From positions 1 to 28,774 of the IMG/VR virus record IMGVR_UViG_3300037479_000205: a DNA stretch of 28,774 nt. One strand, written 5' to 3'. Shown piece by piece: positions 3,310 through 19,662 of this stretch; the stretch's first letter is position 1; each line of letters opens with the position of its first letter. The position numbers and the translations under genes are program-made. Source of the stretch: a virus (Duplodnaviria > Caudoviricetes). The notes under the pieces were generated by a model. The model was not told the origin of the DNA. It worked only from the letters and a program-made list of their open reading frames with translations, and searched no databases.

Positions 3310-3665
3310 TTTCGAGAGAAGACCTGGATCGCGCTTGGGATGCGGTCGTAGTTGAGTGTCGTGCGAACGGGCGCGACATCGTAGGCGAAGCGGCGGAGGC
3401 CATGCGGACGCAGTGGGAGCGCAGCCTGATGCTTTACGGTCAGGCTTACGTGGACGTCGAAGTTGGCGAGATATTCGACGCGACCCGCATGCGTGCTTGC
3501 GATCGCTGGGTGGCTACGTCGATAACCGACGCATCCACTGAGTCACAGCCGAAAACGAAGTTGCCTCAGGCGTTTGATGCGAGCCTGCATGCGCGCGGTG
3601 AAACGCTCGAGACAGTCATTCGAATGTGCGAGTGGCCGCGAGCGGTCGTTGGAGCGTGGGCATGA
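3306..3665 (+). CDS. Hypothetical protein
   Basis: ATG 3306 overlaps the previous stop; ATGA-coupled to the HNH gene. Confidence 0.6.
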   Translation: MISREDLDRAWDAVVVECRANGRDIVGEAAEAMRTQWERSLMLYGQAYVDVEVGEIFDATRMRACDRWVATSITDASTESQPKTKLPQAFDASLHARGETLETVIRMCEWPRAVVGAWA

Positions 3666-4117
3666 CCAAGCGGACACTCGCCGAGCGCATCCAAAAGCAC
3701 ACGCGGCGCGACGGCGTGGCACCTCCCGGCCTCTTTGGCCCGTGCTGGGTGTGGACCGGCGCGCTCGACAAAGACGGCTACGGCCAGGTGTCGGTGCAGG
3801 GGAAGACCAAACAGGCGCACTGGGCGTCGTACGAGAACGAGCGCGGTCCGGTGAAGGACGGGTTGGAACTCGACCACAAATGCGAGAACCGCCCGTGCGT
3901 GAACCCGGCGCACCTGCAAGAGGTCACGCACGAAGAGAACGTGCGGCTGATCGGCGAACGCGAGCGGGCGAGGAAGCGCGAGGCAGTCGCGGCGTCAATC
4001 GACGAGACGGAGGCGCGGATCATGCGTGTGCTGCGGATTGACCCGGCGAAGTGCGAGGGCTTCCGGCTCGACGACCTGAGGCCGCAGCTGGACCGGATGA
4101 TGAGGGCCTACGAATGA
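3662..4117 (+). CDS. HNH endonuclease (HNH_3-type)
   Basis: 'CWVWTGALDKDGYG...AH..SY....GP...GLELDHKCENRPCVNPAHLQEVTHEENV'; start taken at the ATGA overlap. Confidence 0.92.
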   Translation: MTKRTLAERIQKHTRRDGVAPPGLFGPCWVWTGALDKDGYGQVSVQGKTKQAHWASYENERGPVKDGLELDHKCENRPCVNPAHLQEVTHEENVRLIGERERARKREAVAASIDETEARIMRVLRIDPAKCEGFRLDDLRPQLDRMMRAYE

Positions 4118-4362: not shown

Positions 4363-4631
4363 CCAAGGCCATACGCGCGCTCTGGATCGGTGCTCCGTTC
4401 GACGGCGAGGTGATCGAAGTCGACGAAGGCGTCTCTCAGATCAGGAAGGGCGGCGCGCTTGCGACGATGCGTATCGCCGTGCCTGCCGCCTGGGACCCGG
4501 ATCGGCGCGCCGGTGTCGCGTTCTCGGTTTATGAGCCGACACCGGACAGCGTGCGTCCGATGCTGGAACGATGCCGTTCGGCTGACTGCATCCATCCGAG
4601 CTGGGAGGGCCACGCGCAAAAACCTGCATGA
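4359..4631 (+). CDS. Hypothetical protein
   Basis: ATGA coupling at both ends; 'IGAPFDGEVIEV' resembles a GGPxDG-type phage motif. Confidence 0.6.
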   Translation: MTKAIRALWIGAPFDGEVIEVDEGVSQIRKGGALATMRIAVPAAWDPDRRAGVAFSVYEPTPDSVRPMLERCRSADCIHPSWEGHAQKPA

Positions 4632-5044
4632 CGAAGCGCAAGCCAAAGTCGAAGTTGAAGAAGCGTGGCCCGAAGCCGATGCCGTTGGATTACGACATGA
4701 TCGAACGGCTGGCGCAGCGGTTCTCCACTGTTGAGGACATTGAATCGATTCTCGACCTCGGCGAAGGGACGCTTCGAAAGCGCATGCCGAAAGACCCAAA
4801 ACTTTCCGGCGCGATAAAAAGAGGCACCGGTATCGGGCGCGGATGTCTCCGGGCGCGGCAATACGCGAGCGCGATGGAAGGCAACGTCACCATGCAGATT
4901 TGGCTCGGCAAAAACGAGCTAGGCCAATCCGACAAGACGGAGACGCGCTTGACCGGCAAAGACGGCGGGCCGGTGCAGGTCCAAAACACGTGGCTTGATC
5001 TCGTGAAGTCTGCGCACGCGAAGAAGACAGCCGGAGAGAAGTGA
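4628..5044 (+). CDS. terS: Terminase small subunit
   Basis: HTH, 'GNVTMQIWLGKNELGQSDK', 'LTGKDGGPV'; overlaps the terL start. Confidence 0.85.
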   Translation: MTKRKPKSKLKKRGPKPMPLDYDMIERLAQRFSTVEDIESILDLGEGTLRKRMPKDPKLSGAIKRGTGIGRGCLRARQYASAMEGNVTMQIWLGKNELGQSDKTETRLTGKDGGPVQVQNTWLDLVKSAHAKKTAGEK

Positions 5045-6525
5045 ACTGCAAGTCCAGCGCGGCGCGGAAGCAAGAAGACGCCAACTATGATCTGGTCCTC
5101 TGCGACCGCGCGGTGACCAATCCCGAGTGGTGGGTTCGCGAGGTTCTCGGTGATGACCCCTGGCAAAAGCAGGTCGAGATCATTGAGTCGGTTCGCGACA
5201 ACCCAGAGACAGCCGTGCGCTCGTGCCACGGCGCGGGAAAGAGCTTCATCGCTTCTCGTTGCGCGCTTTGGTTCCTCTACAACCACCCGGACAGCGTAGT
5301 TATCACTACAGCGCCAGGTCGCCGGCAGGTGCGCGGTATTCTGTGGAAAGAGATCCGCTCCGCGCATCGTAAAGCAAAGGTGCCACTTGGTGGGCGCGTG
5401 CTCACGCAAGAACTTGAGCTTTCCGAGGAGTGGTTCGCGTGGGGCTTCACAGCGCCCGAGTATGATCCGGACCGCTTCCAAGGCTTCCACGCCGAGCACA
5501 TCCTGGTGATCGTCGATGAAGCGTCCGGCGTCTCACCGGTCATCTTCGACGAAGGTGTTTCGTCTGTGCTGTCGTCGAGTGGATCGCGCTTGCTGATGAT
5601 CGGCAATCCGACGAATCCCAACGGCGAGTTCGCGAAGGCGTTCAAAGATCCGAACGTCAAAAAGATCGCGATCAGCGCGTTCGACACGCCGAACTTTACG
5701 GCGTTCGGCATCACCCAGAAGGACATCGAGAACGACACGTGGCGCGCGAAGATCACCGGGCCGCTTCCGAATCCGAGACTCGTTGAGCCCGCATGGGTGG
5801 CGAAGCGGTGGGCGCGGTGGGGGAGAAGCGTCACGTCGCCGAACTATGCGGCCCGCGTACTCGGACTCTTTCCGGACATCTCGCCGGACACGCTTCTCCC
5901 GTTGCATTGGATCGAGGCCGCACAACAGCGTGACCTCGCTCCACGAGACGGCGATCCAAACAACCTTGGCGTCGACGTGGCGCGCTTCGGTGCGGACGAA
6001 ACGGTGATCATGCATCGCCACGGCCCTCGCTTCCGCGTCGTCTTCGGCGCGCACGGTCTCTCCACGGCGGCAACAACCGGGCATGTGTGTGCGTGGAGAA
6101 TGAAGACCGGAGCGACGACATCGCACGTGGACGACGCGGGGATCGGCGGCGCTGTGACCGATCAACTCAACGCCGTGAACGAGCCGGTCACACCGATCAA
6201 CGTCGGCGAGACGAAGACCGTCACGGAGCCCGATCGGTTCATCAACCTCAAGGCGGAGCTTTATTGGCGCCTGCGCGAAATGTTTGAGCGCGGGGAGATC
6301 GACATCGATCCCGCGGACGAAGAACTCGCCTCGCAGCTATCGACGATCAAATACTTCTACGATAACAAAGGTCGCATCGGCATCGAACGCAAAGAGGATG
6401 CGAAGAAGCGCGGGCTACCGAGCCCTGATCGCGCCGACGCGTTGATGCTCGCGGCGGCAACGGATCTTACCGCTGCGGAGCGAGAAGAGAACGAGCAGCG
6501 TATGCGCGCGATGGGAGCGTGGTGA
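5041..6525 (+). CDS. terL: Terminase large subunit
   Basis: Walker A 'SCHGAGKS', Walker B 'LVIVDEASG', coupling motif 'IGNP', nuclease motifs 'GVDVARFGAD' and 'SPDRADAL'. Confidence 0.97.
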   Translation: MNCKSSAARKQEDANYDLVLCDRAVTNPEWWVREVLGDDPWQKQVEIIESVRDNPETAVRSCHGAGKSFIASRCALWFLYNHPDSVVITTAPGRRQVRGILWKEIRSAHRKAKVPLGGRVLTQELELSEEWFAWGFTAPEYDPDRFQGFHAEHILVIVDEASGVSPVIFDEGVSSVLSSSGSRLLMIGNPTNPNGEFAKAFKDPNVKKIAISAFDTPNFTAFGITQKDIENDTWRAKITGPLPNPRLVEPAWVAKRWARWGRSVTSPNYAARVLGLFPDISPDTLLPLHWIEAAQQRDLAPRDGDPNNLGVDVARFGADETVIMHRHGPRFRVVFGAHGLSTAATTGHVCAWRMKTGATTSHVDDAGIGGAVTDQLNAVNEPVTPINVGETKTVTEPDRFINLKAELYWRLREMFERGEIDIDPADEELASQLSTIKYFYDNKGRIGIERKEDAKKRGLPSPDRADALMLAAATDLTAAEREENEQRMRAMGAW

Positions 6526-6881
6526 TGAATCCAGAAGACGTGAAACTATCAATCAACGGTCAGCCGATCGAAGGCTACGCGAGCAGCCACACGCTCTACG
6601 TCAACGTGCCACTACGCGAGCGCATCGTCGACATGCTCAACGCGCTCCATCTACTCGACCCCGAGGCGCTCCAGCGCATCATGGATACTCGCGTGGAGAT
6701 CAACGAGCGGCTCGCTGCCGATGGGGTTTGGCCAGTCGCAGGTGGGATCAACACGTCGGGCAAGGCCACGCTCGGGCCGCTCGGTATAATTCAGGGCGTG
6801 CTGAAGCTCGACGATCCGAAGGCAGAACCGATCGGAGCGGTTTACAGCGACGACCTCTCGAAGCTGTTGGGATTCAAATGA
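6525..6881 (+). CDS. Hypothetical protein with N-terminal tail-tube-like peptide
   Basis: TGATG overlap with terL. 'MNPEDVKLSINGQPIEGYASSHTLYVNV' aligns without gaps to the tube N-terminus. Confidence 0.7.
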   Translation: MNPEDVKLSINGQPIEGYASSHTLYVNVPLRERIVDMLNALHLLDPEALQRIMDTRVEINERLAADGVWPVAGGINTSGKATLGPLGIIQGVLKLDDPKAEPIGAVYSDDLSKLLGFK

Positions 6882-7162
6882 TCGACACCGACGAAATAGC
6901 GCGCAAGAAGAGCGAAGCGATCAACGCTCTGCTGTGGGATCTCGGCGGCACGACGTCGCTCGGTGGAAGCGTTGTTCAGATCATAGAACAGACGTACGGA
7001 TTGCCGGACAGCGTGGTCTCGCGAACGCACATGATGGGCGAGTTCCACTGGCGTCTCGGCTTCGTCGAAGTACGGACCCACGCCACGGGCTTCGAGATAG
7101 TGACCGATCGCCAGCAGGTCTTGCTGTTGCCGGCATCGAGCCCAACGACGGAGGCGAAATGA
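6878..7162 (+). CDS. Hypothetical protein
   Basis: ATGA coupling at both ends. Confidence 0.6.
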   Translation: MIDTDEIARKKSEAINALLWDLGGTTSLGGSVVQIIEQTYGLPDSVVSRTHMMGEFHWRLGFVEVRTHATGFEIVTDRQQVLLLPASSPTTEAK

Positions 7163-7416
7163 TCACGCGACGACGATTCTTCGGAGTGCTCGCAGCGCCG
7201 TTCGTGGCTGGTCTCGGCCTCGCGGCGACCAAGCGGCCGATCGTGTACGACGTGATGAACGTACGCGTCTTCTTTGGTGGCCAAGAGATCACAGGATTCG
7301 TCTCAAGTGAGACGATCGAGATCGACTATACTGCGGTGGGATCGAGGTACCCTATCAAGCACTACACCAGCAACGAGGAACTGATCGCTATTGTGTCCAG
7401 CCGCGGAGTATACTGA
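7159..7416 (+). CDS. Small protein with twin-arginine-like signal followed by tail-tube-like peptide
   Basis: GGAGG SD; 'MITRRRFFGVLAAPFVAGLGLAA', then 'VYDVMNVRVFFGGQEITGFVSSETIEIDY'. Confidence 0.7.
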   Translation: MITRRRFFGVLAAPFVAGLGLAATKRPIVYDVMNVRVFFGGQEITGFVSSETIEIDYTAVGSRYPIKHYTSNEELIAIVSSRGVY

Positions 7417-7420
7417 CGCG

Positions 7421-7753
7421 ATGTCGATGCGTGACGCCATCGAACGAATGTACGAGAAGATCCACGCCGACCTCGTACGGTTTGGTCCGCAGCGTTGCTG
7501 GTGTGGAGAGGGGGCCGAATTTCGCGTGGAGTTGTGGTCAAATGCGGACGCGCTGCCAGGTGAGCCGCCGCCGTGTCTCGAACATCGCGAGTTCATTTGC
7601 TTCCAACATTACAGCGAAGGCGTTTCGGAGATGCGCGTCGACGCGCATCTCCGAAAACAGAAGAACGATCGTGCCTGGAAGGCGCACTACGACGTCATCA
7701 CGCAAAGAGACCGCATAGCCATTCGGGAGTTGCTCGATCCGCCGGACGCCTAA
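7421..7753 (+). CDS. Hypothetical protein, possible metal-binding (CxC...CxxH...CxxH)
   Basis: 'CWC', 'CLEH', 'CFQH'; fills the gap before portal. Confidence 0.6.
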   Translation: MSMRDAIERMYEKIHADLVRFGPQRCWCGEGAEFRVELWSNADALPGEPPPCLEHREFICFQHYSEGVSEMRVDAHLRKQKNDRAWKAHYDVITQRDRIAIRELLDPPDA

Positions 7754-7759
7754 CCACAG

Positions 7760-7782
7760 ACACAGGGGAACTAGCAGCAACA
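7760..7782 (+). promoter_or_regulatory. Conserved motif copy 1 (putative late promoter), upstream of portal
   Basis: ACACAGGGGAA-CTAGCAG-CAACA, 10 nt before GTG 7793. Confidence 0.7.
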
Positions 7783-7792
7783 CGCTCCGCGC

Positions 7793-9922
7793 GTGACGGA
7801 TACGCCTGTCCAGAGCGCACCGACCAACGGCCACGCCGCCGGCCTCGACATGGGCACCGTGCTCGCGTTCGCGCAGGCCCTGGCGCCGATGCTCTCGCAG
7901 CGCGCGGACGGCTGGAGCAACATCGTCAACGGACTCGGGCAAGCGAACAAGGACGCCCGGCTCCAAACGAAATATTGCGCGCGCGCGCCGATCGACCAGC
8001 AGACGATCGAGAACCTCTACGAGCAGGACGACATCTTCCCGTTGATCGTCGACCGGATCCCCGAGCACGGCACCCGGCGCTGGATTCGCATCACCGGCGC
8101 GACCGACAAGAGCGGGCGCCCAGCGAAGGACTTCTCGCGCCAAGCGCTGGAGAGCCTCGAAGAGATCGACGCGCAGTCCAAAGTCTTCGACCTGTGGCGC
8201 CTCCATCGCCTCTACGGCGGCGCAGCGATGGTGCTGGGGATCGACGACGGCGCCGGCGATCGGCTCGAACGCCCCGTCAACATGAACGCGGTGAAGGCGC
8301 TGCGCTTCATCAACGTGGTCAACCGCTGGGAGATCACACCCAGCTCGACGCTGGACCGCGACCCGACGTCGCCGACGTACCGCCAACCCGAGACGTACAC
8401 GCTCAACAGCAGCGCGAAGATCATCCACAGTAGCCGCATTATCCGGCTCGATCGCACGATGGTAGCCTCGGACACGTCGACCCGCGGCGTCGACGGTTGG
8501 GACCTTCCGGTGCTCGAGCGCGTCTGGGAGCCGCTCCGTCAATTCGGCTCGCTCTACGGTTGGACCGAGTCGATCTTCCAGGACCTGGTGCAGGGTGTCG
8601 TCACGCTCAAAGGGCTCGCTAACATGCTCTCGCAGCCCGGCGGCAGCGGCGACAAGATCGTGCTGACGCGGCTGCAGACGATGTCGCTGGTGCGCTCGAT
8701 GCTCAACATGATCGTTCTCGACGAGGGCGAGACGTACGAGCGGCGCAACCAAGTCCCGATGGGGCTTTCCGACATCATCATCAGGATCATGGACCGGCTC
8801 GCGGCGGCAGCGGAGATGCCGTTGTCGATCCTGTTCGGACAACCGCCCACCGGCCTCAGCACCGACGACCAGAGCGGGCGACGCGCCTTCTACGACTCGG
8901 TTGCGAACAAGCAGCGGCGGCTCTTGCGGCGACTGATCACGTACCTACTCCAACTGTTGATCGCAGCCAGCGAGGGGCCGTTCAAAGGGAAAGAGCCCGA
9001 GCAGTGGGCGATTGAATTTCTGCCGCTCGAAGAACCCAACGAGAAAGAGAACGCCGATCAGCGCGCGGTGGATTCTCAGACCGAGGAGCGGCTCGTGGGC
9101 CTCGGCATCGTCTTGCCGATGGAGGTTCGCGGTAAGTACCTCAATGATCCGAACTGCCCTTGGCCTCTGGACGCCACGCTGGAGCCAGATGCCCAGCAGC
9201 CCGATCCCGCTGAGGACGAAGTTGCAGCCGAAGAGATGGGTTTGCGCAATGGTGGAGCCGATCCAGAGGAGCGCGAGGACGCGTTCGATCCAAATCAACC
9301 ACGCGACGAACTAGGGCGTTGGGGGGAGGGCGGCGGACATGGTTCCAGACCGCTGAAATTCGACGGTCGCTCGGCGCACAATCCGGAGGCGTCGCGCTAT
9401 TCGGATCCCGAGGATGAGTTTAACTATAATCAGTTCGATCGTGAGCCGCACCTCTCCTCTGCTGTCGTTCGCGAACTCGAGGACGGCCCCCAAACCGACG
9501 ACCCTATTTTTGATGCTCTCAAAAAAGAAGATAAGATGATCGCCAAGATAAAACGCGATTACAAAAGCGTGGGCGAAGAGCCACCTGACATTCAAGATAA
9601 TGCGGTGATTCGCGGAGCAATATTTTCGATTCAGCAAGGAGAGTACTCCGACGAAGCGATTAATAGTGCGACGGAGATACTACGGGCCACCAAAGGCCGG
9701 AGCATTTGGGCTTGGAAAGCACTCGACGCTTACGTTGATCTGGCGCTCGCCGAGCTCGAGTACGACGACGAAGCGCTCGACGGCAAACGTAAGGAGCACC
9801 GAGATTATAAGAAGTTGGCTCTGTCGCTCGCAAAGAAAAAGGCCAAGCTAGAAGCGAAATACAATAGACCCGAAGGATCTCGCTGGAGCGAGAAGACCAT
9901 CAGAGAACCAACCGGTCGATAG
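7793..9922 (+). CDS. Portal protein (DUF1073-type) with ~215-aa C-terminal extension
   Basis: 'RLYGGAAMV', 'IHSSRIIR', 'AAAAEMPLSILFGQPPTGLSTDD...RRAFYDSV'; position after terL. Confidence 0.92.
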   Translation: MTDTPVQSAPTNGHAAGLDMGTVLAFAQALAPMLSQRADGWSNIVNGLGQANKDARLQTKYCARAPIDQQTIENLYEQDDIFPLIVDRIPEHGTRRWIRITGATDKSGRPAKDFSRQALESLEEIDAQSKVFDLWRLHRLYGGAAMVLGIDDGAGDRLERPVNMNAVKALRFINVVNRWEITPSSTLDRDPTSPTYRQPETYTLNSSAKIIHSSRIIRLDRTMVASDTSTRGVDGWDLPVLERVWEPLRQFGSLYGWTESIFQDLVQGVVTLKGLANMLSQPGGSGDKIVLTRLQTMSLVRSMLNMIVLDEGETYERRNQVPMGLSDIIIRIMDRLAAAAEMPLSILFGQPPTGLSTDDQSGRRAFYDSVANKQRRLLRRLITYLLQLLIAASEGPFKGKEPEQWAIEFLPLEEPNEKENADQRAVDSQTEERLVGLGIVLPMEVRGKYLNDPNCPWPLDATLEPDAQQPDPAEDEVAAEEMGLRNGGADPEEREDAFDPNQPRDELGRWGEGGGHGSRPLKFDGRSAHNPEASRYSDPEDEFNYNQFDREPHLSSAVVRELEDGPQTDDPIFDALKKEDKMIAKIKRDYKSVGEEPPDIQDNAVIRGAIFSIQQGEYSDEAINSATEILRATKGRSIWAWKALDAYVDLALAELEYDDEALDGKRKEHRDYKKLALSLAKKKAKLEAKYNRPEGSRWSEKTIREPTGR

Positions 9923-12742: not shown

Positions 12743-13822
12743 ATGTCGCTTCAGCAGTCCTACAGCAACCCGGCGATCGGCATGCCCGGTCAACTGGTCG
12801 GCATCAACAACGCGAGCCACGACATTGGCTCGTACATCAACGACCTCGGGTCGGCGAAGCAGATCCACGACGTCACGATTACCGCCGCGGACAGCACGGC
12901 GTATCTGTTCACGATCAACGGGATTCCGGTGACGTACACGTCCGACGCGTCGGCCACGGTCGCCGAGATTCGCGACGGACTGATCGAAGCTGGTCGCGCA
13001 ACGCTCGCGCTTCAAGACGTCGTCGTATTTCAGCCGTTCGGCTCGTTGCTGCGAATCATCGCGGCGACCGCTGGGACCGGGTTCACGTACGCGGACTCGG
13101 ACTCGAACCTCTCGGGCTCGGCGACGGTCGCAAACGTCGCGCAGACCCCGATCAAGTTCGGCCGCGCGGTGGTGAAGCGCACCGGATCGGGCACGACCGA
13201 TCAGAGCGTTCGCCTCCCCTTCGCTCCGACCGCGCAGGTCACCACGGTGACCGTCACGGCGGCGACGAACTCGAAGGTCTACAGTTTCATAATCCTCACC
13301 GGCGGGTATTCGTACCAGATCGACTACACGTCGGATGGTTCGGCGACGACTGCGGAGATCTCGGCTGGGCTCACCGCTCGAGTCAACGCGCTCAACATCC
13401 CGATCACTGCGGCCGACACCACGGACGAGTTCACGCTTACCGCGGATGTTCCGGGTACGCCGTTCACCGTCGCGGAGGTCGATTCTGAGCTCACGGTTGC
13501 GGAGACGACGGCGAACGTGCCGCTGCTCTTCGTCGGAGTCGCTGCGCGCCACCACAACGTCGTGAGCACGACCGATGCGGCCGAAGGACAGGTCGCCCCG
13601 CTCAAGGCGTTCTCGGTGATCGAATCCGGGCATGTCTACGTCGAGGTCGAAGAGGCGGTCGCCTGGGGCGATGACGCTTACTTCCGACACACCGCGACGG
13701 GGACCGAAGAGGTCGGGACGTGGCGCAACGACGCCGACGGAACCGACTGCGAACAAGTCATCGGAGCGAAGTTCCGCTCTTCGACTTCGGGTGCCGGGAT
13801 CGCGGTGCTCGAGCTTCCGTAA
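12743..13822 (+). CDS. Capsid decoration/cement protein with two inserted repeat modules
   Basis: Lies between scaffold and capsid. N-term 'QQSYSNPAIGMPGQL', 'IKFGRAVV', C-term 'GHVYVEVEEAVAWGDDAYFR...GAKF...GIAVLEL'. Confidence 0.8.
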   Translation: MSLQQSYSNPAIGMPGQLVGINNASHDIGSYINDLGSAKQIHDVTITAADSTAYLFTINGIPVTYTSDASATVAEIRDGLIEAGRATLALQDVVVFQPFGSLLRIIAATAGTGFTYADSDSNLSGSATVANVAQTPIKFGRAVVKRTGSGTTDQSVRLPFAPTAQVTTVTVTAATNSKVYSFIILTGGYSYQIDYTSDGSATTAEISAGLTARVNALNIPITAADTTDEFTLTADVPGTPFTVAEVDSELTVAETTANVPLLFVGVAARHHNVVSTTDAAEGQVAPLKAFSVIESGHVYVEVEEAVAWGDDAYFRHTATGTEEVGTWRNDADGTDCEQVIGAKFRSSTSGAGIAVLELP

Positions 13823-16763: not shown

Positions 16764-17528
16764 ATGCCATTCCGCTACTACCCAGAGGACTGGGAAGATC
16801 TCAAACAAGCGGTCTTCGACTTCGCGCGCGGACGAGTCACGGACGACGCGATCGCCGTCGTGTGGTCGAAACAGGACGCGCCATCTCCGCCGCCGCCATT
16901 CGTGCGGCTCGACATCGTTACAGCGCCGGTGAACGACGGCATGGCCGAGCACCGGAACGAGTTGGCGATCCAGGTGACCGCGGCGATCGCGCTAGCCACG
17001 TACACGGTCACGATCAACGATGTCGATTTCACGTTCATCGCCGACGCATCCCCGACCCTGGTCGAGATTCGCGACGGGTTGATCGCATCGATCAACGCTG
17101 GCGGCGAACCCGTCACCGCGAGCGCTATCGTTTCGGATGCGTTGGTTCTGGTGCGCGATGCTGGCGCCGAAGAGCCAGAACTCGAGGTCGGTGCGAACCT
17201 GGCGATCAAGATCGCCGACACGACCTACATCGATGCGCTGACCACGTTCAGCGTGGAGGTGCTCGCGCCTGATGACGTGGCGATGACGTTGTCGAAAGCG
17301 ATCGAGTTTGGGCTCGACGATCCGGTGTCACAGGAGGCGCTGCACGCGTCGGGCTGGTCGACGTCTTCAGTCGAGGGACCTCGCACGCTCGACGCTGTGT
17401 TCGGGTCCCGCTGGGAGAAGCGCACGGGCTTCGACATGCGTTTGCGATGCCGTCAGCGGTCGGTGGCGATCATCGATTATGTCGAAACCGCAGGAATGGG
17501 CACGGGGATCGTGTCGACGTTCGAATAG
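16764..17528 (+). CDS. Tail terminator / neck protein with one inserted repeat module
   Basis: 'VVWSKQDAPSPPPPFVRL', 'WEKRTGFDMRL', 'IDYVET'; immediately before sheath. Confidence 0.8.
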   Translation: MPFRYYPEDWEDLKQAVFDFARGRVTDDAIAVVWSKQDAPSPPPPFVRLDIVTAPVNDGMAEHRNELAIQVTAAIALATYTVTINDVDFTFIADASPTLVEIRDGLIASINAGGEPVTASAIVSDALVLVRDAGAEEPELEVGANLAIKIADTTYIDALTTFSVEVLAPDDVAMTLSKAIEFGLDDPVSQEALHASGWSTSSVEGPRTLDAVFGSRWEKRTGFDMRLRCRQRSVAIIDYVETAGMGTGIVSTFE

Positions 17529-17537
17529 GAGATTGAG

Positions 17538-19205
17538 ATGCCGAGCGAGCTCGATGATGTCGTAGTCCTTCAGATCACCCGCGACACCAGCGCTCTATCA
17601 CAGGCTGGATTCGGCACGCCGTTGATTCTTCCGGCGAGCGTTCCGGCGAGCTTCACCGAGCGATTGCGCTACTACACCGCCGCCGCCGACATGCTTGATG
17701 ACGGGTTCACCACATCAGACATGGCGTACGTCCAGGCGCGCGCGATCATGTCGCAGAGCCCGCACCCGGAGCGATTCGCCGTCGGACGGCGCGCAACCGC
17801 TGTTGCGCAATTCCAACTCTTCGTTGTCCCAGCGACGCCGGACAACAGCACGTTGTATCGGATCGTGATCAACGGAACGAATTGCGACTACACGACGGAT
17901 GCGTCAGCGACGCAGGCGGAGCTTCGGGACGGGCTGATCGCCGCCATCAACGCGGCCGTGGGTGAGGTCGTGACTGCAACGACGAGCACCAACGATGTGT
18001 TGGTCACCTCGGATGTGGCGGGTATTCCGTTCACATATTCGATCGCCACCGGCCCGACGACGCCGCTGACGCTGCCGGCGCAGACGCAACTCTTCGTCAT
18101 CCCGGCGATGGTCGACAACTCTTCGATCTACACGGTGCGCATCAACGGGACTCCGTGCTCGTACACGACGGATGCGTCAGCGACGCAGGCGGAGCTTCGG
18201 GACGGGCTGATCGCGATCATCAACACCAACGTCGGCAGCGCGGTCACCGCGACCGCGAGCACGAACGACGTGCTTGTCACTGCCGACGTGGCGGGTACGA
18301 ATTTCACCTTCGAGATCGTCGACACCAGCACCACGAACGACGTCACGCTCGGCGCGTCCACCGGTGCGCGCCCGAACGTAGGTATCCCTGAAGATCTCGC
18401 GGCGATCGAGGACTACCAGCCCGATTGGTATTGCCTGCTGATCACGCAGCGCGATCGCAACCACATCATGACGACTGCGGCAGAGATCGAGGCGATGACC
18501 AAGATCTTCATCGCGCAAAGCGACGACGCTGCGATCCTGGCCACGCCGTACAACGCGAGCGACACGGACACTGACGTTGCATCGGAGCTTCACGCGCTCG
18601 GCTACGACCGCACCGCGCTCGTCTATCACCCCGACGACACCGAGGCGCTCGATGCGGCTGTGGTGGGTATCTGCCTGCCGCCGAACGCGGGATCGATCAC
18701 CTGGAAGTTCAAGTCGCCGAGCGGTATCGACGCTACGCAACTCACTACGACCGAATTGACGAACCTCCGTTCGAAGTCGGCAAACGGCTTCAGGAACGTT
18801 GCTGGCGTGTCGATCTTCTACGAGGGGACGATGGTCTCCGGCGAATTCATCGACATCATGCACGGGACCGACGCTTGGGCAGCGGACGCGCAAGCGAGCA
18901 TGTTCGATTTCCTCCGGCGCGCGCCAAAGGTTCCCTTCACGCAGAAGGGGCTCAACGCTGGCAAGGCGCCGATCGAAGCATCGCTCGAGCGGTTCGTGCG
19001 TACGGGCCTGTTCGCCGGTTCGCTGACGCTGGCGAACGGCGACGAGCAAGTGCCCGGCTATGTCGTGACTGCGCCGAACATCGCGAACATTTCGGCCAAC
19101 GATCGCGCGACACGTGCGATCCCGGCGAGCGAGCCCTATCGAATCACCGCGCCGTACGCGGGCGCTGTCCACAAGGTCAGGATGGACGCGGTGCTGTCCG
19201 TCTGA
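17538..19205 (+). CDS. Tail sheath protein (DUF3383-type) with tandem inserted modules
   Basis: 'QAGFGTPLI', 'SQSPHP', 'GSITWKFK', 'EGTMVSGEFIDIMHGTD', 'KVPFTQKG', 'AGAVHKV'. Confidence 0.93.
   Translation: MPSELDDVVVLQITRDTSALSQAGFGTPLILPASVPASFTERLRYYTAAADMLDDGFTTSDMAYVQARAIMSQSPHPERFAVGRRATAVAQFQLFVVPATPDNSTLYRIVINGTNCDYTTDASATQAELRDGLIAAINAAVGEVVTATTSTNDVLVTSDVAGIPFTYSIATGPTTPLTLPAQTQLFVIPAMVDNSSIYTVRINGTPCSYTTDASATQAELRDGLIAIINTNVGSAVTATASTNDVLVTADVAGTNFTFEIVDTSTTNDVTLGASTGARPNVGIPEDLAAIEDYQPDWYCLLITQRDRNHIMTTAAEIEAMTKIFIAQSDDAAILATPYNASDTDTDVASELHALGYDRTALVYHPDDTEALDAAVVGICLPPNAGSITWKFKSPSGIDATQLTTTELTNLRSKSANGFRNVAGVSIFYEGTMVSGEFIDIMHGTDAWAADAQASMFDFLRRAPKVPFTQKGLNAGKAPIEASLERFVRTGLFAGSLTLANGDEQVPGYVVTAPNIANISANDRATRAIPASEPYRITAPYAGAVHKVRMDAVLSV
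17818..17854 (+). repeat. 37-bp exact repeat shared with window end (28738-28774)
   Basis: TCTTCGTTGTCCCAGCGACGCCGGACAACAGCACGTT at both positions. Confidence 0.95.
17889..17941 (+). repeat. 53-bp exact direct repeat, copy 1 (within sheath)
   Basis: TACACGACGGATGCGTCAGCGACGCAGGCGGAGCTTCGGGACGGGCTGATCGC, identical at 18162-18214 (offset 273 nt = 91 codons). Confidence 0.95.
18162..18214 (+). repeat. 53-bp exact direct repeat, copy 2 (within sheath)
   Basis: Identical to 17889-17941. Confidence 0.95.
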
Positions 19206-19221: not shown

Positions 19222-19662
19222 GTGCCCGGAACTGTCCAAACATTCGATCCCAAGCTTCTGGTCGTCATGGTGCATGGCGTACTGATCGACGGGTACGCGC
19301 CCGACACCTTCGTCAACATCGAGTACGACTCCGACCTGTGGACCAAACTGATCGGCGCTGACGGCCAAGGCGCCTGGGCGAAGAGCAACGACCTGAGCGC
19401 CACCGTTACGCTCAGGCTCATGCCCGGCTCACTCTCGAACGCTTGGCTGCAGAGCCGCTTGTCCGCAGACATGGCGCTCAACGTCGGCTTCGGGCCAATC
19501 TCGATCACCGATCCATCGACGCTGACGTCGCACAACGGGCTGAGCTCGCGGATCATGAAACCGCCGACGAAAGTCTACGCAGGCACCGTCGAGGCATTGG
19601 AGTGGCAGATCGGCGTGCTGGAACTGATCCCGGTGCATGGTGCTGCGCCGGCGTTCGCGTGA
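19222..19662 (+). CDS. Tail tube protein (DUF3277-type)
   Basis: AAGGAG SD. 'TFDPK..VVMVHG..IDGYAPDTFVNIEY', 'GADGQG', 'TLRLMPGSLSNAWL'. Follows sheath. Confidence 0.9.
   Translation: MPGTVQTFDPKLLVVMVHGVLIDGYAPDTFVNIEYDSDLWTKLIGADGQGAWAKSNDLSATVTLRLMPGSLSNAWLQSRLSADMALNVGFGPISITDPSTLTSHNGLSSRIMKPPTKVYAGTVEALEWQIGVLELIPVHGAAPAFA

Follow-up and report, generated by a model that had tools for sequence, protein, structure and literature searches.

Profile comparison confirms, more weakly for gene A, that two small genes of a contractile-tailed phage, here called A and B, each carry ~30 residues homologous to the N-terminus of the contractile-tail tube proteins of family PF11681/phrog_280. We tentatively read A and B as late accessory genes with an old, diverged tube N-segment, kept by selection as a putative bait that would occupy a host tube sensor without triggering it (rough probability 0.4). 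The window, that is, the whole stretch of DNA analysed, is a virus record of 28,774 bases, which profile searches identify as the late region of the phage, with terminase, portal, capsid, sheath, tube, chaperone, tape measure and baseplate genes. The features that bear on the argument are the following.

5041..6525, plus strand: terminase large subunit (phrog_2, E 2.5e-38); its stop overlaps the start of gene A (TGATG)
6525..6881, plus strand: gene A, 118 aa; tube N-terminal piece joined to a phrog_21281 domain
6525..6608, plus strand: tube-like piece of gene A, residues 1-28 against tube residues 8-35; the weaker match
6621..6875, plus strand: phrog_21281 domain of gene A (PHROGs profile)
6878..7162, plus strand: gene C, 94 aa; matches no family at E<0.1 and shows no tube likeness; overlaps the stop of A and the start of B (ATGA)
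7159..7416, plus strand: gene B, 85 aa; a tube N-terminal piece between a hydrophobic, twin-arginine-like leader and a tail of 27 residues
7159..7230, plus strand: twin-arginine-like leader of gene B, its first 24 residues; RRxFF, then a hydrophobic stretch
7243..7329, plus strand: tube-like piece of gene B, residues 29-57 against tube residues 7-35
7421..7753, plus strand: gene D, about 110 aa; no assigned family; last gene of the insert
7793..9922, plus strand: portal protein (PF06381, E 7e-68)
19222..19662, plus strand: tail tube protein (PF11681/phrog_280/NF047581), flanked by sheath and tail assembly chaperone

The gap between terminase and portal is filled by four small genes in the order A, C, B, D, with overlaps at terminase/A, A/C and C/B. 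GGAGG precedes the ATG of gene B, and GC3 is similar to that of the surrounding genes (0.74 in A, 0.71 in B). A scan of positions 6000-8000, confined for promoters to the sigma-70 consensus, found neither a promoter-like site (0 sites) nor a plus-strand terminator; the insert is probably read as part of the late transcript. Genes A and B stand outside the genomic setting of the tube gene, which lies between sheath and chaperone, and their placement between terL and portal, ~12 kb from the tube gene, is as the earlier note had it.

Some other genes of the window are of note. At 626-1066 there is a second terminase-small-subunit-like gene, of which residues 3-87 match the first 90 of the 166 positions of phrog_4102 (E 6e-13) before other sequence follows; the small subunit adjoining terL (4628-5044) is phrog_309, and the gene at 626-1066 may be one more incomplete copy of a packaging protein, or else a disrupted gene. 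A module of ~80 residues is common to the cement protein (twice), the tail terminator (once) and the sheath (twice), encoded at 12743-13822, 16764-17528 and 17538-19205, with E-values of 1e-7 to 1e-9 within the window. The portal ORF (709 aa) extends about 200 residues beyond its Pfam match as an acidic, low-complexity C-terminal extension (9293-9922), and an HNH endonuclease lies upstream of the terminase genes, at 3626-4117.

The tube protein itself, of 146 aa, matches PF11681 (KPP10 Orf10, 'DUF3277' in record annotations), phrog_280 (E 7e-30) and NF047581, and at least 526 of 50,697 cultured phage records match it. A profile of 56 tube sequences matches solved tail tube chains at E 1e-33. 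The model of the window's tube (pLDDT 89.7) has strands at 14-17, 20-22 and 31-35, then a hairpin at 40-44/50-54, and superposes on the tubes of Sf14, Bas63, Pam3 and PhiTE with a TM of about 0.8. In PhiTE, whose tube belongs to the same family, the N-terminus carries an extension of 18 residues that is wrapped over the hairpin of the next ring, according to the accessible part of PMC11972413; a YDP motif lies inside that extension, at residues 13-15. Two short PHROG families, phrog_37137 (87 positions; a weak match to tube residues 7-46) and phrog_13903 (118 positions), weakly match the N-terminal region of the tube only, and may hold further tube pieces.

What is the evidence that the pieces in A and B derive from such a tube? 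Relative to tube positions 19240-19326, 7 of 29 residues are identical in gene B (7243-7329) and 6 of 28 in gene A (6525-6608), and both genes carry G-Q-x-I-x-G-[YF]-x-S-S-x-T; our recount agrees with the earlier note on each of these figures. Profile searches against tube families, which that note had proposed as a check, did find matches. Gene B finds its best match among 38,880 PHROG families in phrog_280, to which the tube itself belongs (E 0.025, over profile positions 5-34); in NCBIfam its sole match is NF047581 (E 0.006, model positions 1-29). phrog_280 is also the only match on the N-terminus of gene A (E 0.42 for the whole protein, 0.036 for residues 1-30), which has no NCBIfam match. 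Against the alignment of 56 tubes, hhalign gave P 2.6e-6 and 89% for B, P 2.9e-5 and 74% for A. A profile of 26 foreign tubes, excluding the window's tube and its closest (77%) relative, scored gene B at 18.7 bits and gene A at 13.1 bits. None of 5000 shuffles reached the score of B and none of 5000 that of A (shuffle maxima 7.4 and 9.3), and the control gene C had its own score reached by 2603 of 5000. With this profile B and A are the top two non-tube matches among 3497 six-frame segments; in a larger search, of 31,427 segments with a 127-sequence profile, B was found at E 0.003 and A only at E 0.09.

A chance likeness of a generic strand-turn-strand motif is largely ruled out for gene B by the shuffles and by the tube family being its top match in two independent libraries, PHROGs and NCBIfam. 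The same explanation, which concerns mainly gene A, can draw on the failure of pairwise BLASTP to detect the tube likeness of either gene, on the E of 0.09 in the larger search and on the empty NCBIfam result; with no shuffle of either gene reaching its score, and both pieces lying in the same register at the same end of the profile, we consider it quite improbable. On these comparisons we regard tube homology as solid for gene B and probable for gene A. The pieces align without gaps and span the N-arm and the first three strands, ending at tube residue 33-36, before the ring-stacking hairpin; they are without the hairpin, the helix and the C-terminal strands and thus fall short of the full beta-sandwich. 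Each has lost one near-invariant tube position (N for D9 in A, V for P10 in B), and the piece of gene A begins after the tube's aromatic residue. In the ESM Atlas features gene A had no match, and the top matches of gene B (0.85-0.88, to viral clusters) are leads only.

The pieces are old copies, or were acquired from a related phage. In register, DNA identity is 38/87 between tube and B, 38/84 between tube and A and 35/84 between A and B (42-45%). The phage's own tube ranks 16th of 28 tubes as a match for either piece, and 122nd and 107th of 129 in a larger set whose make-up is skewed by the motif with which it was gathered. The low DNA identity, and the fact that the own tube is not the closest match, led us to reject a recent duplication of the own tube gene. 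That protein likeness is kept despite low DNA identity points to selection at the protein level. The view that the pieces are fused to unrelated sequence holds in so far as their partners are foreign to the tube, but the remainder of gene A can be assigned: its residues 33-117 match phrog_21281 (E 1e-10), a domain that bears different, unrelated N-termini in Tunturi_5 gp132 and in a Yersinia phage.

The earlier note had named two outcomes that would speak against a tube origin, a lack of tube-profile matches and a lack of conserved homologues. The first did not come about; no whole-length homologue came up in the searches made, yet the design recurs in four other sequences (P0016, P0015, L058 and L070). 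Word-index protein searches returned only A and B themselves, tblastn of gene B had no match better than E 4 in cultured phages, and no loci related by tube were found in viral or genome contigs; a terminase search found three distant loci. Searching 1.84 billion proteins with a profile made of B, the N-terminus of A and two tube N-termini gave 11 matches, namely B, six long proteins, two tube proteins, P0015 and P0016. The six long proteins match through several stretches, and the one inspected is a simple repeat. P0016 (62 aa), which comes from an unrelated sample, repeats the leader-linker-tube-piece layout of gene B (hhalign 95%), and P0015 has a tube piece at 24-57 followed by an unrelated tail; both sit on short contigs.

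A scan of IMG/VR DNA with the tube N-terminal motif gave about 380 matches, and the 120 listed comprise 107 full tubes, 5 cut by contig ends, 2 apparently broken tube genes, 2 low-scoring chance matches, 2 weak ones (L144 and L106, excluded from the piece count) and 2 clear fusions, L058 and L070. Both fusions lie in regions of small non-structural genes. On each of their contigs a complete tube gene of this family is found as well, at distances of 14 and 28 kb, and the pieces share 8/24 and 9/24 residues and 36/72 and 34/72 bases with it; this co-occurrence is to be set against the at least 526 of 50,697 cultured phage records that match the window's tube. All six pieces, those of A, B, P0015, P0016, L058 and L070, stop at about tube residue 30-36, before the hairpin. 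In gene A and L070 the piece is the N-terminus of the protein; the piece searches were built on the N-terminal motif, and the start points are biased accordingly. The SS after G[YF]x, rare in full tubes (1/53), is absent from L058 and L070, and that of P0016 is not independent, the profile having included A and B. A DNA pattern of leader plus tube motif gave 19 matches in IMG/VR, all chance on inspection, and 169 sequences of other loci (flanks up to 10 kb, many shorter) showed no further tube piece in the neighbourhood of a full tube gene. A hairpin-motif scan returned no fusion among the 120 matches listed, of which 98 were accepted as full tubes, a further 15 proved full on inspection and 7 were truncated at the end of a contig or locus; the difference from the 2/120 of the N-terminal motif, likewise among the matches listed, is not significant.

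The leader of gene B has a twin-arginine motif and a hydrophobic region: RRxFF is followed by a 15-residue hydrophobic stretch and then KR, with a mean hydropathy of 2.05 over residues 7-21. In these traits it resembles the Tat signal peptides of TIGR01409 and PF10518, neither of which matches gene B at E<=1; TIGR01409 matches 4 of 5 other leader ORFs, 1 of them above cutoff. In contrast to Tat substrates, the cargo of gene B is a short piece unlikely to fold alone (Atlas model pLDDT 0.36). The leader may take B out of the cytoplasm.

Gene B belongs to a wider set of genes in which such leaders are joined to pieces of virion proteins. A scan for leaders of the B type gave 100 loci, reduced to 61 distinct in-frame ORFs, 54 of them of at least 35 aa; six near-duplicates were dropped, and the other 48 were compared with PHROGs. 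Nine of the 48 have partial matches to head, packaging or tail families at E<0.1, and two of the nine (L207 and L254) may be other kinds of gene. In the controls, from 39 loci with flanks, such matches occur in 5/78 small neighbours and 0/39 antisense ORFs (Fisher p 0.042 and 0.004), where three connector genes of full length and a terminase small subunit that is probably genuine are left out of the 5/78. The excess over neighbours is thus marginal (p 0.042) and the E-values weak, and with the probable terminase small subunit counted the comparison becomes 9/48 against 6/78. The remaining 39 of 48 leader ORFs are without a head or tail match, and the tails behind the leader are very heterogeneous.

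Three leader ORFs were compared with their own genomes. L224 matches a 347-aa gene (E 0.002) and L191 a 306-aa gene (E 7e-5); L213 has no match in its own 80%-complete contig. The target of L191 is a capsid protein by Pfam (E 7e-11), and that of L224, which we take to be a capsid protein as well, weakly matches the same model (E 0.066). A terminase or portal gene lies on the same strand within 4 kb of 13 of 39 leader genes, a raw count, and two leader genes lie between terminase and portal, as gene B does. Twin-arginine-like leaders were also seen on a terminase piece (L268:3-338, minus strand, E 5e-4), on a capsid N-terminal piece (L191:3748-4035, minus strand) and on coat-protein pieces (L193, L214), and the same kind of leader precedes a conserved family of 135-145 aa in L197, L199, L229, L238 and L243, for which the three members tested have no PHROG match.

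What could be the role of such pieces? We rank the putative bait first partly because the proteins copied across the class are those that sensors watch. In the accessible part of PMC13581612, STAND sensors are described as detecting capsid, portal, terminase and tube, apparently as monomers; Avs16 is modelled on the tube hairpin, and Avs sensors read whole folds over large interfaces. The accessible part of PMC10973363 lists tube residues 9, 13, 23, 27, 30 and 32 among the contacts of the DSR2-tube complex, in which the tube is that of a siphophage and of another family, and has DSAD1 blocking DSR2 by occupying the tube pocket. Genes A and B would be produced at the same time as the tube, and a piece of 30 residues, too small to polymerise or to show a sensor the whole fold, could bind without activating. 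The leader of gene B would tether the piece or route it to the membrane, and gene A would use a small carrier domain in place of a leader. Selection is favoured by a likeness that survives in the protein but no longer in the DNA, by the fusion of the piece to different partners within one operon, and by the recurrence of the layout elsewhere. The bait reading is weakened by the missing hairpin, by the whole folds and large interfaces on which Avs sensors rely, by the loss of D or P, by the failure to find orthologues and by the possible export of B. If the leader is a genuine export signal, B would be placed away from cytoplasmic sensors, which argues against a bait, and the rank of the own tube, 16th of 28, is odd for a decoy of the phage's own trigger. 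The sensor-decoy idea put forward in the earlier note survives, then, with the qualification that the pieces are without the hairpin on which Avs16 is modelled and that the leader of B may leave the cytoplasm. The accessible parts of PMC11263360, PMC13338283 and PMC13728456 make no mention of tube fragments.

Close behind the bait comes the possibility that A and B are recycled modules with no mimic role. The third idea of the earlier note, reshuffled gene debris, keeps some probability, since both genes are singletons. The gap between terminase and portal would then be a shuffling hot spot where leaders, carriers and bits of virion genes are joined, and the tube piece would persist as a peptide that is tolerated or of some general use or, in gene A, as the captured start of a gene. 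Both genes are singletons, phrog_21281 carries other, unrelated N-termini in two cultured phages, the leaders have heterogeneous tails with 39 of 48 lacking a head or tail match, the piece stands at the protein N-terminus in A and L070, and near-invariant positions have been lost, all of which agrees with recycling. It is less easily reconciled with two intact, in-frame and differently fused copies in one genome whose DNA likeness is gone, with the repetition of the leader-plus-piece layout in an unrelated sample or with the similar end points of all six pieces.

We find it unlikely that the piece binds the tube itself, as a free N-arm covering the hairpin of unassembled monomers and thereby hiding the sensed surface or pacing polymerisation. 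The contact is a real one in PhiTE, where the extension wraps the hairpin of the adjacent ring (PMC11972413, accessible part), and the same hairpin is the modelled contact of Avs16 (PMC13581612, accessible part); however, gene A begins only past the aromatic residue and replaces the invariant D by N, gene B is without the P, the pieces are less like their own tube than like many foreign tubes, and a protein that bound this tube would run the risk of poisoning the assembly of the phage's own tails. Dominant-negative inhibition of the tail assembly of competing phages is the least likely reading and the weakest of the three ideas in the earlier note: the pieces are nearer to the family consensus than to the own tube, and prophage tail-assembly blockers exist in Tai and Tab (accessible parts of PMC11364771 and PMC10884400), but overlapping start and stop codons tie A and B to the late genes of the phage, and the scan of 6000-8000 gave neither a sigma-70-like promoter nor a plus-strand terminator, so that they would be silent in the lysogen and active during the building of its own tails.

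Returning to the bait, bacterial sensors detect most of the core virion proteins, which are hard for phages to change, and a response of phages in the form of short pieces homologous to those proteins would be a cheap and general counter-defence. More doubtful than the bait itself is its generalisation, in which tailed phages would keep a swappable library of short virion-interface pieces on leaders or carriers as late anti-sensor baits or masks, the members being the ring-clamping arm of the tube here and capsid and terminase pieces elsewhere. If true, the pieces would mark the surfaces read by sensors or by assembly partners. A and B offer a direct test, since a single operon here joins the same 30-residue tube segment to two different partners. 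Should the pieces be neutral, they would still document the birth of phage accessory genes from scraps of virion genes.

How do A and B compare with known systems? In a search mostly outside the subscription literature we found no published description of accessory genes built from tube or capsid pieces. The PF11681/phrog_280/NF047581 tubes of PhiTE, Sf14, Bas63 and Pam3 align ungapped, over the N-arm and three strands, to residues 29-57 of B and 1-28 of A; unlike those tubes, the pieces are fused to foreign sequence, have no hairpin and lie 12 kb from the sheath-tube pair. Morons are accessory genes between core phage genes. With them and with the Tai and Tab blockers, as far as accessible descriptions go, A and B share the character of accessory genes, of a phage or prophage, with a bearing on tail assembly or a place between core genes; they differ in being built of pieces of virion proteins and, as the sigma-70 consensus scan suggests, may differ in having no promoter or terminator of their own. 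The nearest known kind appears to be a tube-mimicking inhibitor, DSAD1 of SPbeta, which acts on the tube-sensing NADase DSR2. A DSAD1-type match to A or B is absent from Pfam and NCBIfam, and the two are likened by description: DSAD1 is a tested DSR2 binder described as mimicking the tube in the pocket, whereas A and B are tube-homologous pieces, and what they have in common on the bait reading is that of a small phage protein proposed as a mimic of the tube.
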